From: Candidatus Korarchaeum cryptofilum OPF8
GTDB taxonomy: Archaea > Korarchaeota > Korarchaeia > Korarchaeales > Korarchaeaceae
Direction: 5' to 3'
Assembly: GCF_000019605.1 (NCBI RefSeq)
Contig: NC_010482.1
Coordinates: forward strand, 360,001 to 392,000
DNA: 32,000 bases
In this document: piece by piece, positions 3,319 to 8,673 of the stretch
Layout of the letters: each line of letters begins with the position of its first letter
Position numbering within the stretch: the stretch's first letter is position 1
Program-made: the position numbers and the translations under genes
The notes under the pieces: generated by a model
What the model was told of the DNA's origin: nothing
Databases searched by the model: none
Seen by the model: only the letters and a program-made list of their open reading frames with translations

Positions 3319-3640
3319 GCTAAACCCGATGAATGGAGGTAAGATAAAACGCTAGCTGCGTGCATGAGACCTCAAAGACAGCAGATTACTCAAGATTTTT
3401 ATCCTAACATGGATTAACAATGATCTCCTATAAATTACAATTCGATAACTCCATAATAAATTTTAGAAAATGGGCGATAAATCAGGGAATTTTTAATTTT
3501 TTCAATGATAAAATCATGAATATATTTTATAAAATAATGGGATAATTATAGAAAAATTTTTGTAATATGAGCCGGGAGTTTTTATAATTTATGATTAAGC
3601 GGTATCCTCATAAATTCTCTTATGTTTAATTAACTTTTTA
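3319..3640. promoter_or_regulatory. Very AT-rich divergent intergenic region between thyX (-) and the LysW-like gene (+), with several BRE/TATA-like boxes
   Basis: The stretch is roughly 25-30% G+C by eye, against about 50% in the flanks. TATA-like gttttatctt lies on the minus strand about 25 nt upstream of the thyX ATG. ctttttaat at 3634-3642 lies about 30 nt upstream of ATG 3674, with a GGGGTGA Shine-Dalgarno-like sequence at 3663-3669. Confidence 0.5.
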
Positions 3641-3673
3641 ATGGGCTCGCGAGCTTGGGCTGGGGGTGACCCT

Positions 3674-3895
3674 ATGGAGTTTGAGTGTCCCGTATGCGGA
3701 GCTGTATTCGATATAGAGGATGTAGAAGAGGGCGATGAGGTCAGATGCCCTGAATGCGGCGCTCTACTCGTCGTCATGAAGAAGGGCAAGAAACTCTACT
3801 TGGAGCCCGTTCCTGAGGAGGAAGAGGAGGAATGGGAAGAGGAGGAAGAGGAATGGGAAGAGGAGGAAGAGTGGGAGGAGGAAGAGGAGTTCTGA
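3674..3895 (+). CDS. LysW/ArgW-like zinc-ribbon amino-group carrier protein homologue with extended acidic (EEW)n tail
   Basis: The sequence MEFECPVCGAVFDIEDVEEGDEVRCPECGALLVV...LYLEPVPEEEEEEWEE has the CPxCG...CxxCGA ribbon plus LEPxPEE..W.E tail pattern of LysW. I chose ATG 3674 over 3641 because of the TATA at 3634-3642 and the SD-like GGGGTGA 4 nt upstream. Confidence 0.65.
   Translation: MEFECPVCGAVFDIEDVEEGDEVRCPECGALLVVMKKGKKLYLEPVPEEEEEEWEEEEEEWEEEEEWEEEEEF
3815..3889 (+). repeat. 75-nt polypurine tract (72 purines, 3 T, 0 C) built of imperfect 21/18/18-nt tandem units encoding W-E5-6
   Basis: Read directly from the sequence: gaggaggaagaggaggaa-t-gggaagaggaggaagaggaa-t-gggaagaggaggaagag-t-gggaggaggaagaggag. 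Confidence 0.9.
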
Positions 3896-3896
3896 G

Positions 3897-4643
3897 CTAT
3901 CGAGGCATCCTGTAAAAAGCCATCTTTTTTCCTATCCCGAGGTCATCCAGCTTTTTCTCCCATTCATCAGATATAGAGATCACCGAGAAGACCCCCCATA
4001 GCTTAGCTCCCGCATCGTTCACTATATCAATTATCGCCTCTAGGGATTCCAAGTTCTTCACGATATCCCTAACCAAGATCACTCTATCATCCACCTCTAT
4101 CTGGCTAGGTACGTAGAGCTCGACAACAGCCCCTCTATCGAGGGAGACGTAAGAGCTCCTCAAGTAAGACTCTAAGGAGAGACTTGCATGTTCCATGCAG
4201 CTTAAAGCCTTCGCTTTGAGCCAATCGCTAGCGATTAGGGCTAGGGGGAAGGATCCCTGTGGGGATACTATCACGTTAACCTCCTCATCCCCGACGAAAC
4301 TCGATATGACATATCCCATGAGCTCCAGGAACTTGTAGTTGCTCATAAGCCTCCAGGACTCTATGTAATTGTACCTGTTGACCCTGAGATTTCTCCTGAG
4401 AGCTTCCTCTATAAGGTTCAGGCTCTCTATCCTCTCTATTATCTTCCTAGCTGTCGTCTTCTCCGGTGTGCTCTTGAGACTTATGTATCTCCATATGACT
4501 TGGTACGGTATTCCTAGCTTCGATTCAAGCTCCTTCAATGTGAAAAAACCCTTTAGGGAGCTCAAAAGCCTGACGGAGATGTAAGGAGACTCGAGCCTCC
4601 CGTTCCTCATGACCACTTTACCTTTCCAAGAAGCGTAACTCAC
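3897..4643 (-). CDS. Putative transcriptional regulator: N-terminal winged HTH fused to a degenerate phosphoribosyltransferase (PRT)-like domain
   Basis: The N-terminus FTLKELESKLGIPYQVIWRYIS is HTH-like. The C-terminal domain has PRT topology, but the PRPP loop reads VILVRDIVKNLESL instead of hhhhDDxxxTGGT. The start is GTG at 4643 or, more consistent with the tttaaat TATA at 4646-4655, ATG at 4610. The stop lies 1 nt from the LysW-like stop. Confidence 0.6.
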   Translation of the reverse strand: MSYASWKGKVVMRNGRLESPYISVRLLSSLKGFFTLKELESKLGIPYQVIWRYISLKSTPEKTTARKIIERIESLNLIEEALRRNLRVNRYNYIESWRLMSNYKFLELMGYVISSFVGDEEVNVIVSPQGSFPLALIASDWLKAKALSCMEHASLSLESYLRSSYVSLDRGAVVELYVPSQIEVDDRVILVRDIVKNLESLEAIIDIVNDAGAKLWGVFSVISISDEWEKKLDDLGIGKKMAFYRMPR

Positions 4644-4750: not shown

Positions 4751-5710
4751 ATGAAGATGCTTCAGCAGGCAACCTTGCTTGAGGAGTTCAGGTTCCCCGG
4801 GACTCTTTTTAGAGTGAGGAAAATCCCGATAGCTCAGGGATGGAGGAAGATATACATCAAATGGGAGGGAAATAACCCCACGGGGACCCAAAAGGACAGA
4901 GCGGCTTACATGCACGTGAGGAGGGCTATAGAGCAGGGATACGATACGGTGACCGTGGGCACCTGCGGGAACTTCGGGGCTTCCTTAGCCTACTTCGCTA
5001 ACCTCCACGGGATGAGGGCAGTGATATACGTACCGTCACGCTACACCAATGGGAGGGTTAGGGAGATGAGGAAGTACAATGCTGAGATAGTTTACGTAGA
5101 TGGCAGCTACGAGGACGCTGTGGAGAGGAGCGTGCTCGATGCTATGAAATACGGATACTACGATTCCAATCCCGGGAGCGTTAACAGTAGGGTAGCCCTA
5201 GAGTCCTTCAAGGCCATCGCTTATGAGATAGTTGCAGCCCTGGGCTCGGTCCCAGATTTAGTCTCCGTCCCAATGGGAAACGGCACCACTCTAGCTGGTA
5301 TCTACATGGGCTTCCGCGAGATGCTCGATATGGGGATCTCGAGGAAGCTCCCAGTGATGCTAGGGGCAACTACGGGACTGGGGAATCAGATAGCTGAGAC
5401 CCTCAAGAGAGGCTCCGAGGAGCTAGTCCCCCTGAGGGAGGATGAAGTGAGGGAAACTGAGTATAATGAGCCATTGGTCTCGATAAAGGCTTTCGATGGT
5501 GAGTACGCCTTGGAAGCTATAAGGAGGAGCGGCGGCTTAGCTTTCGAATTCTACGATGAGGAACTGCTTCAGCTCGCTGAGGAGCTTAGAATGGAAGGTA
5601 TAGACCCTCTTCCAGCATCCTCCTCCTCTTTAGGGGCTATAGAGAGATATTTAGAGTTCGGGGGATATTTCGAGAATGCAGTGGCAGTCGTCACAGGGAG
5701 AAGGTTCTGA
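4751..5710 (+). CDS. PLP-dependent fold-type II enzyme (threonine synthase / cysteine synthase / TrpB superfamily)
   Basis: NPTGTQKDR contains the PLP-lysine motif (canonical NPTGSFKDR). GTCGNFGASLAYFA and the glycine loop PMGNGTTLAG are also present. Length is 319 aa. Confidence 0.8.
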   Translation: MKMLQQATLLEEFRFPGTLFRVRKIPIAQGWRKIYIKWEGNNPTGTQKDRAAYMHVRRAIEQGYDTVTVGTCGNFGASLAYFANLHGMRAVIYVPSRYTNGRVREMRKYNAEIVYVDGSYEDAVERSVLDAMKYGYYDSNPGSVNSRVALESFKAIAYEIVAALGSVPDLVSVPMGNGTTLAGIYMGFREMLDMGISRKLPVMLGATTGLGNQIAETLKRGSEELVPLREDEVRETEYNEPLVSIKAFDGEYALEAIRRSGGLAFEFYDEELLQLAEELRMEGIDPLPASSSSLGAIERYLEFGGYFENAVAVVTGRRF

Positions 5711-6758
5711 AGTCCCCGAAGCTCTGATACTAGCTGAGGGAAAATACGATACTTCCGATGCTAAGACAGCTCACGGCCTCGTCAGGAAGTCCATGAGGTA
5801 CAGGATAGTCGGCGTCATAGACAGCAGGTTCGCTGGGATGGACGCTGGTGAAGTGCTGGATGGGAAGAGGAGGGGCATAAAGATCTATAGGAGCTTGGAT
5901 GAAGCGCTGAGTGAGAGGCCAAATGTCAGAGTGCTGATAGTCGGTGTAGCCACAGCGGGAGGAATGCTCCCACCTGAGTACAGGGGCTACATAAGGGAAG
6001 CCATAGAGAGGGGGCTCAACATAGTATCGGGGCTCCACGAGTTCCTGAGCGATGATCCAGAGTTCTCAAAGATATCTAAAGAGAGAGGAGTCGAGATAAT
6101 AGATGTCAGGAAGATCTATCAGAAGATGAGGCTTTTCTATACAGGGAAGATAAGGGAAGTGGATTCTTACAGAGTAGCTATCTTAGGGACCGATGCTTGC
6201 ATAGGGAAGAGGACGACGGCCTGGATGATAGTAGATGAGCTCAATAAGAGGGGTATAAAGGCGGTTTTCGTCGGGACCGGTCAGACCGCTTGGATGCAGG
6301 GAGCTAAATATGGGATAGTGCTCGATGCTATGATAAACGATTTCATACCAGGAGGATTGGAGCATGAGGTCTGGAGGGCTTACGTCGAGGAGAGGCCAAA
6401 GGTAATAGTGGTCCCTGGCCAGGGTTCATTGCTGCATCCGGCATTCCCGGGTAGCTTCGAGATAGTGAATTTACTAACGCCTAACGCTATAGTGCTGCAG
6501 CACGCACCTGGGAGGAAGCATTTAGAGGACTTCCCGGAGTTCCCAATGCCCTCGCTGGAGAAGTACATACGCTTAATAGAAGTCATGACGGATAGGAAGC
6601 CTCTAGCTATCACTATAAACACAGAAGGGATGAGTGAGGAAGCTGTGGAGAGTTATGTCAAGGAGGTGGAGGCCAAGTACGGAATAGTGGCATGCGCTCC
6701 CCTGATCCATGGCGTGGGTAGGATAGTCGATGCCATAGCTAAGGAGGTGGAGGGTTGA
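5676..6758 (+). CDS. DUF1611 (COG3367) family protein with BioD-like P-loop
   Basis: The N-terminus LAEGKYDTSDAKTAHGLVR and the central ILGTDACIGKRTTA P-loop-like motif are characteristic of DUF1611. It overlaps the upstream gene by 35 nt and the downstream gene through a TTGA overlap. Confidence 0.65.
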   Translation: MQWQSSQGEGSEVPEALILAEGKYDTSDAKTAHGLVRKSMRYRIVGVIDSRFAGMDAGEVLDGKRRGIKIYRSLDEALSERPNVRVLIVGVATAGGMLPPEYRGYIREAIERGLNIVSGLHEFLSDDPEFSKISKERGVEIIDVRKIYQKMRLFYTGKIREVDSYRVAILGTDACIGKRTTAWMIVDELNKRGIKAVFVGTGQTAWMQGAKYGIVLDAMINDFIPGGLEHEVWRAYVEERPKVIVVPGQGSLLHPAFPGSFEIVNLLTPNAIVLQHAPGRKHLEDFPEFPMPSLEKYIRLIEVMTDRKPLAITINTEGMSEEAVESYVKEVEAKYGIVACAPLIHGVGRIVDAIAKEVEG

Positions 6759-8194
6759 GCATCTGCTTCGATAAGATCAGGATAGGGAACCTGAGGGTGA
6801 AGGATAGGGCTATACTAGCTACTTACGAGCTCGAGGTGGACGGCGTCAGGAAGGAGTACGATCTCATAGAGGTGTACGAGGAGAGTATAAGGGATATAAG
6901 GGGTATCGAGGAGATAGCTGCGTTGATAAGCATAGTTCCGGCGATAAATTACACATTATTTGCGAAAGAAATTGATATAGAATTCCCAATACATGAGTTA
7001 GACCTAAAGTTCTTCATGGATATGAGCGAGATAACTGCTAGGGATATCTTCGTCAATAGGATAGTCAAGAGGACTGGCCTCATCAAGGATGAGTTCATAC
7101 CGGACCCCGAGAGCTTGAGGCCCGAGGATGCTAGCCCGAAAGCTGAAGTTAATGCGAAGATAGGGTCAACGGTCCTCGATTACTCAGGGGATGAGTTGAA
7201 ATGCGGTGTCATGGTCTCCGGGGGGAAGGACAGCCTCCTCTCCTTCATGCTCCTGAAGGAAGCTGGGTGCGAAGTTCATCCCTTCTTTTTCAATGAGAGC
7301 GGGAGGCATTGGCACGTCTCCCTGAAGGCGTACAGGTACTTCAGAGCTGGGGAACCTAGGACAAGCAGGGTCTGGAGCAACGTAGATAGATTATTCAACT
7401 TCATAGAGTCAAACATGAGGATCCTTGTCAAAGATTTCAGGAAAAAGACGAAGGAAATATATCCGATAAGGCTCTTCTGGTTCGAGCATTGGGCTTTCTC
7501 CTTCCTCCCGATCATGATGAGGAGGGGTATAGGGAACATAATCTTCGGGAACGAGTACGATGATCCATCCTCAGTTTCCTCCTACTTCAAGGGGATAAAG
7601 CATTATAATGCGGTTTACGACCAATCCCAGGACTTCGAGGATTACATGACGAACTGGTTCAAGGAGAGGGGGCTTGGAATAAAGCAATGGTCTCCAATAA
7701 GATCTATCTCTGGATTGATAGTACAGAGAATCCTCTACAGGAGGTATAAAGATATCATGAAGCTTCAGATGAGCTGCCATACTCCTAGGTATGCTAGCGG
7801 GGAGCTGAGGCCATGCGGGAGCTGCTATAAATGCATAGGGATAAGGATCTTCCTGCTGGCTAATGGGATAGATCCAAAGATAATAGGTTACGGGGATGAG
7901 CTGAGCGATATAGTGGAGCACGTCGAGGCCGGGAAGTACAGGTTGGATGAGGATGAGCTGGAGCACTCACTGTACCTCATAAGCGAGAGGCTCGGGGTTA
8001 AGCTCCCCAGGGCCCATCCTCATCCCGAAGTAGAGACAGTGAGGTTCAACGATGTAACTGCGAGGATAGATCATATTCCATATCCTGAGTTAAGAAGAAA
8101 AATTTTTAATATAATTGAGGAATATGTGAATGGATATTCCATTCTGAGGGATGGGAAATGGGTAAGAGTAGGGAGAGAGGAATTGGGGCTGTAG
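6755..8194 (+). CDS. PP-loop (adenine nucleotide alpha-hydrolase) ATP pyrophosphatase, 479 aa, with an unassigned N-terminal domain of about 150 aa
   Basis: VMVSGGKDSLLSFMLLKEAGCEV carries the SGGKDS PP-loop. A C-terminal CGSCYKC cysteine motif is present. The TTG start is preceded by a strong SD (aaGGAGGTGgaggg) and overlaps the upstream stop. Confidence 0.7.
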   Translation: MSICFDKIRIGNLRVKDRAILATYELEVDGVRKEYDLIEVYEESIRDIRGIEEIAALISIVPAINYTLFAKEIDIEFPIHELDLKFFMDMSEITARDIFVNRIVKRTGLIKDEFIPDPESLRPEDASPKAEVNAKIGSTVLDYSGDELKCGVMVSGGKDSLLSFMLLKEAGCEVHPFFFNESGRHWHVSLKAYRYFRAGEPRTSRVWSNVDRLFNFIESNMRILVKDFRKKTKEIYPIRLFWFEHWAFSFLPIMMRRGIGNIIFGNEYDDPSSVSSYFKGIKHYNAVYDQSQDFEDYMTNWFKERGLGIKQWSPIRSISGLIVQRILYRRYKDIMKLQMSCHTPRYASGELRPCGSCYKCIGIRIFLLANGIDPKIIGYGDELSDIVEHVEAGKYRLDEDELEHSLYLISERLGVKLPRAHPHPEVETVRFNDVTARIDHIPYPELRRKIFNIIEEYVNGYSILRDGKWVRVGREELGL

Positions 8195-8673
8195 CGATAG
8201 AGTTTAGGGATCTGGGGCCTGAGGAGATAGAGGAATACATAAAATTCGATGCTAAGATAAGCTGGGATTTCCTAACTGATGAGGAGAAGATGGAGCTGGG
8301 ATACGATGATTATCTGAGGAGGCATAGGGAGGTAGTGTACTCGCTCTACAGAGCTAACATGAGGAACAGGATGATAGCGGCTTATGCGGACGGCGAGATT
8401 GTAGGAGTGGTCTGGGTGGGCATGAGGGTAGATACGGTCCACTTCGTGGGCGTGGGCTACATATACGATATCGAGGTGATTAGGGATCTGAGGGGGAAGG
8501 GGATAGGGAGCAAGCTACTCCAGATGGCCGAGGAGACCTGCAGGGAGTGGGGAGTCAAGGAGGTCATGCTGGCTGTCGAGGCGAATAATTTTGAGGCAAT
8601 TAAGTGGTATGAGAGGATGGGATACGCTCCGAAGAGGTATCTGATGAGCAAGAGGTTGCGAGCGTTTGAATGA
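8158..8673 (+). CDS. GNAT-family N-acetyltransferase
   Basis: Motif A reads IYDIEVIRDLRGKGIGSKLLQMAEE (R/QxxGxG), followed by NNFEAIKWYERMGY. It overlaps the upstream gene by 37 nt. Confidence 0.85.
   Translation: MGKSRERGIGAVAIEFRDLGPEEIEEYIKFDAKISWDFLTDEEKMELGYDDYLRRHREVVYSLYRANMRNRMIAAYADGEIVGVVWVGMRVDTVHFVGVGYIYDIEVIRDLRGKGIGSKLLQMAEETCREWGVKEVMLAVEANNFEAIKWYERMGYAPKRYLMSKRLRAFE

Follow-up and report, generated by a model that had tools for sequence, protein, structure and literature searches.

Protein-tethered amino-acid biosynthesis has its founding example in LysW. Described LysW and ArgW proteins (Thermus thermophilus 3WWL, 3WWN, and 5EIO, Sulfurisphaera tokodaii 3VPB, and Thermococcus kodakarensis 5K2M; families NF041070 and TIGR01206) consist of a Cys4 ribbon of about 45 residues and an acidic, Trp-containing C-terminal extension. 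LysX/ArgX recognize the EDWGE end of LysW/ArgW through their GSWGR motif, and the carriers cannot work without their terminal Glu; the ArgW E54A variant, in which this residue is replaced, is auxotrophic (PMC10433800). Here, we describe a gene of Candidatus Korarchaeum cryptofilum OPF8, located in a stretch of 32,000 nucleotides (NC_010482.1, positions 360,001 to 392,000; the window) of a complete, single-contig genome of 1,590,757 bp. Its product, which we call the A-type protein, has both the ribbon and the acidic, Trp-containing extension in common with LysW/ArgW. It differs from them in that it has no EDWGE end or terminal Glu, its tail is longer and variable, its β-hairpin is basic, and its gene lies outside a lys/arg cluster. 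Moreover, no ligase of its own was found, it belongs to a separate clade, and it scores below the carrier family cut-offs.

The A-type protein begins with a Cys4 ribbon (CPVCGA...CPECGA), in which Cys5, Cys8, Cys25, and Cys28 are the presumed Zn ligands, continues with a strand-turn-strand element, VVMKKGKKLYLEP, and ends with a 26-residue tail. The segment between CPVCGA...CPECGA and the acidic tail is KKGKKLYLEPVPEE. The tail, EEEEEEW-EEEEEEW-EEEEEW-EEEEEF, contains 22 Glu residues, Trp54, Trp61, Trp67, and the terminal Phe73. This 73-residue translation matches the one on which the original prediction, made from the nucleotide letters, had proposed a LysW-like ribbon architecture and an alignment against LysW as its check. 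The ribbon does align with LysW in both profile and fold searches. Pfam PF21344 (Zn_ribbon_LysW) matched residues 4–48 over profile positions 2–46 of 46 with 41.1 bits, against a gathering cut-off of 27. A subfamily profile run against PDB sequences retrieved LysW chains (3wwl, 5k2m, and 3vpb) at 7e-10 to 5e-8, followed by RpoP at 4e-4. In the AlphaFold2 model of the ribbon, 33 residues had a predicted local distance difference test (pLDDT) value of at least 90, and five β-strands were formed; each of the four 10-residue blocks over residues 1–40 averaged at least 90, and the blocks over residues 1–50 lay at about 79–92. The six best Foldseek matches in the PDB were all LysW chains, with template-modeling scores on the target of 0.76–0.87 and root-mean-square deviations of about 1.7–2.1 Å for five of them and 3.7 Å for 3wwl. 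By profile comparison and by the predicted model, the A-type ribbon is shown to be homologous to LysW and to have the same fold. The tail is presumably disordered, with pLDDT below 55 from residue 50 on. A search of the ESM Atlas returned only bacterial LysW-like clusters (71–85 residues) and gave no functional lead.

The canonical carrier system of this genome is encoded elsewhere. A lysW gene (MEARCPICG...GGVLEDWGE) sits between lysZ and lysX in the row lysY-lysZ-lysW-lysX-lysJ, at about 819–824 kb of the genome and about 457 kb from the A-type gene. Its product reached 79 bits on NF041070 (carrier_LysW_Arch; cut-off 75), LysX 330.8 bits on TIGR02144 (cut-off 275.6), and LysZ 280 bits on NF010662 (cut-off 194); LysX carries the GSWGR motif. 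The A-type protein scored 27.9 bits on NF041070, below the family threshold. On TIGR01206 (cut-off 53.2), it scored 35.1 bits and the canonical LysW 35.3 bits; hence, only NF041070 discriminates between the two. The single match to the RimK/LysX-type ligase family (PF08443) in the complete genome is the LysX beside the canonical lysW, and no cognate RimK-family ligase for the A-type protein was found besides it. The original prediction described a stand-alone gene, and indeed the window contains no homologues of lys-cluster proteins. The second, canonical lysW that it proposed to look for exists, so the A-type gene is not the only LysW homologue of the genome; its orthologues in other genomes also lie outside lys clusters. 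Since the protein ends in ...WEEEEEF, without EDWGE or a terminal Glu, scores 27.9 bits where 75 are needed, and the sole LysX adjoins the canonical lysW, the A-type protein is, judged by its sequence and gene content, not the amino-group carrier of this genome. Modules that would build the tail by a RimK activity or trim it by a peptidase (RimABK-like or MATCAP-like), or that would act by tubulin-like tyrosination, were considered for the host genome and rejected, as neither a second RimK-family gene nor a peptidase match was found. PF05618 (DUF785) had no match in this genome, and neither had MATCAP/PF08014, a weak negative given that the control matched in no genome either.

The A-type gene was found in seven of the 20 genomes of the genus, i.e., the host and six with orthologues. 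The tails of these proteins contain three, two, one, or no Trp residues (Table 1), and the last residue is always Phe or Tyr. The underlying DNA is an imperfect GAG/GAA tandem array (Tandem Repeats Finder periods 6–36). Because the orthologues carry zero to three Trp residues, the threefold repeat, presented in the original prediction as a triplicated recognition element, appears to be a strain-level state of a slippage-prone array and not a conserved triplication. The tail is longer than the canonical one, as was also claimed, by about 17 residues over that of the host LysW rather than by about 20. The features kept across A-type proteins are the ribbon, a (K/R)(K/R)G(K/R)(K/R) hairpin (KKGKK, RRGKR, KRGKR, KKGRR, or RRGRR among homologues), an acidic tail of variable length, and the aromatic end. 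At the hairpin position, the host canonical LysW has FNDNGA, and the canonical LysW proteins of the lineage are acidic or neutral.

A profile search of 5.8 billion proteins separated a discrete A-type cluster of 19 proteins (74–95 bits) from canonical LysW (at most 64 bits). Its named sources include metagenome-assembled genomes (MAGs) labelled Korarchaeum and Thermofilum, and Bathyarchaeia proteins lie just below it. The C-terminal residue, which the original prediction had suggested surveying, is Phe, Tyr, or Trp in 14 of the 20 cluster proteins (query included), compared with roughly 9% expected from composition; as the sequences are related, this count is descriptive and not a formal test. 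Most of the remaining members have an aromatic residue among the last five positions. A degenerate DNA pattern, CPxCG...(K/R)(K/R)G(K/R)(K/R)xxLE, matched only the Korarchaeum subclade among 401 archaeal genomes, in agreement with a profile search (E ≤ 1e-15), and gave six matches on metagenome contigs, two of them outside the Korarchaeum clade. A related-locus search of genome contigs returned mostly canonical EDWGE-ended LysW (bacteria and Desulfurococcales), and only the Korarchaeia orthologues were informative.

The A-type locus is a real gene, and its ribbon is under strong purifying selection. Compared with same-genus orthologues over 47 ribbon codons, the ratio of non-synonymous to synonymous substitution rates (dN/dS) was 0.03–0.055 at dS ≤ 1.5. 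The reading frame of every orthologue stays open through to the aromatic codon and the stop, the indels in the repeat notwithstanding. Nor is the tail a chance feature, since only two of the 15,660 stop-to-stop frames of at least 40 residues in the host genome, those of the A-type gene and of one paralogue, combine a long acidic tail with an aromatic last residue. A search of the same genome for a C-terminal EEEF code likewise gave only these two LysW-like proteins. The start at 3674 is better than the alternative ATG at 3641, because it is preceded by the Shine-Dalgarno-like GGGGGTGA and orthologues do not retain the upstream ATG; the G015 frame opens only three codons 5′ of MEFEC. The gene is monocistronic, with thyX upstream on the opposite strand, and the closest database homologue of its product is labelled Candidatus Korarchaeum sp.

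The host paralogue, which we call B-type, has a LysW-like ribbon and a long Glu/Trp tail (...EEEEWLEDEDFWEEGEEETSWEEEEEF). It has the same WEEEEEF end as the A-type protein and falls on the same side of the tree described below; it differs in its hairpin (IERGE instead of KKGKK), in its neighbours, and in its distribution, as B-type proteins, ending in F, Y, W, or L, occur in most Korarchaeia genomes searched. Upstream of the host B-type gene, at a distance of 44 nt, is a gene for a DsbB-like membrane protein; on the other side, the B-type gene is convergent with genes for 2-oxoacid:ferredoxin oxidoreductase. A ribbon-only maximum-likelihood tree, of low resolution at 49 columns, split all canonical LysW proteins from the archaeal A and B types with 96/94 support and grouped the query with P0003, P0011, and P0174 at 97/97. 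Within the limits of this tree, the archaeal A and B types form an uncharacterized sister family of LysW. Bacterial-looking forms (P0006–P0010), which have the same long-tail architecture and have also lost the carrier end, hold a separate position, nested among bacterial canonical LysW. The long acidic tail on the LysW fold may thus have arisen more than once.

Long-tail proteins also persist where LysX was not detected, which argues that the clade is independent of this ligase. Three genomes of another Korarchaeia genus (G021, G041, and G043; 96–97% complete) contain long-tail paralogues and gave no RimK-family match and no canonical LysW. In two genomes of a third genus (G022 and G051), two or three such paralogues are present, the RimK-family gene is in a non-lys context, and a canonical EDWGE-ended LysW was not found. 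We also observed, in the latter two genomes (L090/L093) and at L157/L158, a long-tail LysW-like gene ending in WEEEEW between an M20 peptidase gene and methyltransferase and radical-SAM genes; M20 is the peptidase family of LysK. In another genome (G133), a short frame ending in ...WLEEEWEEEEWEEEEWEEEWEEEEW and devoid of a zinc ribbon (L156:1240-1401, − strand) is divergent from a gene for a 95-residue CxxC...CxxC ribbon protein with an acidic end (L156:1489-1776, + strand). The WLEEEWEEEEWEEEEWEEEWEEEEW-ended frame may encode a free-standing Glu/Trp tail peptide.

On balance, we favor the view that the A-type protein carries no substrate and works through binding, probably in docking or regulation. 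This view is suggested by the LysW fold, the lost carrier end, the lack of an own ligase, the presumably disordered, variable tail, the conserved aromatic end and basic hairpin, the purifying selection, and the existence of paralogues in genomes without LysX. It also corresponds to one of two alternatives in the original prediction, a non-carrier acidic zinc-ribbon protein; the other, a carrier recruited to a different partner set, is not favored. In such a protein, the poly-Glu tail would be a flexible polyanionic tether. The C-terminal aromatic residue, together with the scattered Trp residues, would anchor in a hydrophobic pocket of the partner flanked by basic residues, and the handle, or a second contact, would be provided by the zinc ribbon and its basic hairpin. 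Acidic, Phe-ended tails are known from bacterial SSB (DDDIPF) and from phage T7 gp2.5 and gp4, and in SSB and gp2.5, the terminal aromatic residue is the key anchor for partners. The resemblance to the A-type protein may be seen in the acidic, disordered tail and its aromatic end; the zinc ribbon is unrelated to the OB fold of those proteins, and nothing indicates that the A-type protein binds nucleic acids. Within the LysW family, the recognition of the Trp residue of EDWGE by LysX (PMC10433800) may be likened to the proposed docking of the A-type tail.

The best local candidate for the partner is the PurR-like regulator encoded tail-to-tail with the A-type gene, although we consider this particular pairing rather unlikely. 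The stop codons of the two convergent genes are 1 nt apart. In the genus, the order is thyX, the A-type gene (+), the PurR-like gene (−), and then ThrC-like, DUF1611, PP-loop, and GNAT genes (all +). The PurR-like gene is present in all seven A-type genomes and in G014 and G019. The operon, sought by its PP-loop gene, is present in G014, G019, and six of the seven A-type genomes, and adjoins the A-type block on every contig that extends far enough. The remaining A-type genome, G001 (83% complete), gave no PP-loop match, and its contig stops about 2 kb beyond the PurR-like gene. In the remaining 11 of the 20 genomes, none of the A-type gene, the PurR-like gene, and the operon was found. As these genomes are related, the same-genus block amounts to roughly one observation. 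The pairing recurs on an unrelated metagenome contig (L112), where an A-type gene (46% identical, ending in ...EEEFR) lies tail-to-tail with a PurR-like orthologue (44%, 89 residues) and an AMP-phosphorylase-like gene takes the place of thyX upstream. No other neighbour recurs, and this recurrence, with a different upstream gene, is what makes the PurR-like protein a candidate. The contigs G014:C130 (L107) and G019:C39 (L108) break off right at the PurR-like gene, next to which the ribbon gene would be expected. The GAG/GAA repeat may break short-read assemblies and cause the A-type gene to be under-counted in MAGs.

The PurR-like protein combines a winged helix-turn-helix (HTH) with a phosphoribosyltransferase (PRT)-fold domain. 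It scored 109 bits on NCBIfam PRK08558, below the cut-off; its AlphaFold2 model had a pLDDT of 87.5, and the top Foldseek match was Bacillus subtilis PurR, over the full length (262 columns). Its loop for phosphoribosyl pyrophosphate (PRPP) is degenerate, VILVRDIVKNLES compared with VLIVDDVxxxGET in distant homologues, and that of the L112 orthologue is degenerate as well. GfcR is an archaeal precedent for an HTH-PRT regulator that no longer binds PRPP (PMC10838023). Next to distant HTH-PRT homologues of other archaea (20–32% identity), no zinc-ribbon gene was seen. The PurR-like gene is transcribed divergently from the ThrC-like/DUF1611/PP-loop/GNAT operon and probably regulates it. The first gene of this operon encodes a ThrC-like pyridoxal phosphate enzyme (PRK06381, 461 bits). 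Below the cut-off, the DUF1611 protein is similar to DgcN, a D-Glu N-acetyltransferase. The 479-residue PP-loop-like protein faintly resembles MurL, a carboxylate-adenylating epimerase (E 1.6e-4); a PDB sequence search with the PP-loop-like protein found no relative. If the partner is the PurR-like protein, the A-type tail could compete with DNA or an effector at the regulator. In a broader version of this idea, which we regard as more doubtful still, archaea, and probably bacteria in a separate event, would have turned the LysW fold into small tail-docking regulators, with a DNA-like poly-Glu tail and an aromatic anchor that would plug into nucleic-acid- or effector-binding sites; the A-type protein would here be an anti- or co-regulator of a PurR-type factor that has lost its PRPP loop and controls the operon.

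Several points weigh against the docking reading and, in particular, against the PurR-like partner. The binding partner is putative, and a non-specific role, such as solubility, cation binding, or general polyanion chaperoning, is possible. About 30% of the family members have no aromatic last residue. The co-occurrence of the A-type and PurR-like genes is mostly confined to a single genus, where one gain or loss may explain it, and convergent genes are not co-transcribed. On contig L110, labelled Thermofilum, an A-type gene (ending in ...ENEY) has no PurR-like neighbour. The contexts of related genes vary, with B-type copies near DsbB-like, 2-oxoacid:ferredoxin oxidoreductase, M20 peptidase, or PP-loop genes. 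Moreover, independence from LysX was shown for the B type only, and each A-type genome examined has a lys cluster.

Among the alternatives, a general polyanionic nucleic-acid mimic or chaperone, shielding basic proteins such as histones, Alba, or ribosomal proteins and having no single partner, fares best and is still unlikely. It would explain the extreme composition (22 Glu among 26 residues, with interspersed aromatics), the predicted disorder, the tolerated variation in tail length, and the varied genomic contexts. In eukaryotic histone chaperones, acidic-aromatic motifs are binding elements. However, the fixed C-terminal position of the aromatic residue and the conservation of the basic hairpin suggest that docking has a specific geometry, and a patchy distribution over seven of 20 genomes of one genus would be odd for a housekeeping chaperone.

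It is improbable that a new pathway uses the A-type protein as an alternative carrier of amino or acyl groups, with intermediates attached to a Glu side chain or the C-terminal carboxylate and the ThrC-like/DUF1611/PP-loop/GNAT operon as the candidate enzymes. Homology to LysW, the operon or parts of it in six of the seven same-genus A-type genomes and the failure to find either gene or operon in the 11 others, and the MurL- and DgcN-like similarities noted above would fit such a role. Nevertheless, no ATP-grasp ligase is present in the block or elsewhere except lysX, the terminal residue is Phe or Tyr and not Glu, and the tail length is unconstrained. The co-occurrence is confined to one genus and is not independent evidence. 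The link to the DUF1611/PP-loop operon entertained in the original prediction does not extend beyond within-genus synteny: the A-type gene is a separate, monocistronic unit, with the convergent regulator gene between it and the operon. Other family members lie in unrelated contexts, and a genome of another family (G030) has the ThrC-like/DUF1611/PP-loop operon and, anywhere in the genome, neither a PurR-like nor a LysW-like gene.

We see an equally poor chance that the A-type protein regulates the LysW pathway or acts as a decoy in it. The protein would then occupy the LysW sites on LysX, LysZ, LysY, LysJ, or LysK, present no terminal Glu there, and thereby throttle lysine and arginine synthesis. 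The LysW-fold head suits this idea, as do the lys cluster in all A-type genomes examined, the tails of some family members that look as if a LysW tail had been truncated behind its aromatic residue (...EEGW and ...EEGY, compared with ...EDWGE), and the EDWGE-reading GSWGR motif (PMC10433800) of the host LysX. However, B-type sister paralogues persist where no LysX or LysW was found, the lys cluster is unlinked to the A-type gene, and the basic hairpin, acidic or neutral in LysW, indicates a changed enzyme-contact surface. Family members are also reported from lineages such as Diapherotrites MAGs, which are expected to lack the LysW pathway. Finally, a non-functional locus, i.e., a GAG/GAA low-complexity repeat behind a chance short open reading frame, would account for the tandem repeat in the tail DNA and for the assembly breaks at the locus in two genomes, but is effectively refuted by the constrained ribbon, the Shine-Dalgarno-like site, the frames kept open in every orthologue despite indels, and the homologues in further archaeal lineages.

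The features of the locus, the tail variants, and the B-type paralogue are listed in Table 1. The spacer between thyX and the ribbon gene is A/T-rich and 355 bp long; at window positions 3319–3640, over about 320 bp, it is very A/T-rich and far exceeds what two promoters require.

Table 1. Features of the A-type locus (positions in the window unless a genome or contig is named), tail variants in same-genus genomes, and the host B-type paralogue. G000 is the host genome.
Feature	Location	Strand	Remarks
LysW-fold zinc-ribbon coding sequence with aromatic-ended acidic tail (A-type)	3674..3895	+	73 codons + TGA
Globular zinc-ribbon domain, residues 1–47	3674..3814	+	AlphaFold2 model, Foldseek, PDB profile search
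Basic β-hairpin turn KKGKK, residues 36–40	3779..3793	+	Alignments; A-type subfamily signature
Polyanionic tail, predicted disordered, residues 48–73	3815..3892	+	Low pLDDT; terminal Phe73 codon 3890–3892
Shine-Dalgarno-like GGGGGTGA	3662..3669	+	Read from the sequence; 4 nt 5′ of ATG 3674; putative ribosome-binding site
TATA-like A/T-rich stretch TTTAATTAA	about 3625–3633		Upstream of the A-type gene; putative promoter element
PurR-like regulator, winged HTH + PRT-fold domain	3897..4643	−	NCBIfam, AlphaFold2, Foldseek; candidate partner only
Four-gene operon ThrC-like/DUF1611/PP-loop/GNAT	4751–8673	+	
Tail E6W-E6W-E5W-E5F	G000, G001, G017		73 residues in total
Tail E8W-E5W-E3W-E5F	G015		72 residues in total
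Tail E6W-E5W-E5F	G016		66 residues in total
Tail E6W-E5F	G005		60 residues in total
Tail without Trp, ending in ...AEEEDY	G004		70 residues in total; 55% identical
Second LysW-fold paralogue (B-type), 83 residues	G000:C1:1235038-1235268 (= L003:1369-1620)	−	

We found no literature on this LysW-like subfamily. As far as the sequences tell, it adds an archaeal clade distinct from LysW. It also adds a complete genome in which a true carrier system and two non-carrier paralogues occur together, tails that differ in length among the species of one genus and whose aromatic end is fixed, and a candidate regulator partner. Small LysW-like ribbons tend to be called carriers by annotation pipelines and readers. 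The aminoadipate pathway should not be inferred from a PF21344 match that has neither EDWGE nor a lysX neighbour. One genome with a carrier and two non-carrier paralogues suggests that the fold has a second use, marked by an aromatic-ended acidic tail. Members of the family come from several archaeal lineages, and bacteria have proteins that resemble them. The identity of the partner would give a role to many mislabelled ‘LysW’ genes, and could reveal a simple, portable docking code that consists of a polyanion and a C-terminal aromatic residue.

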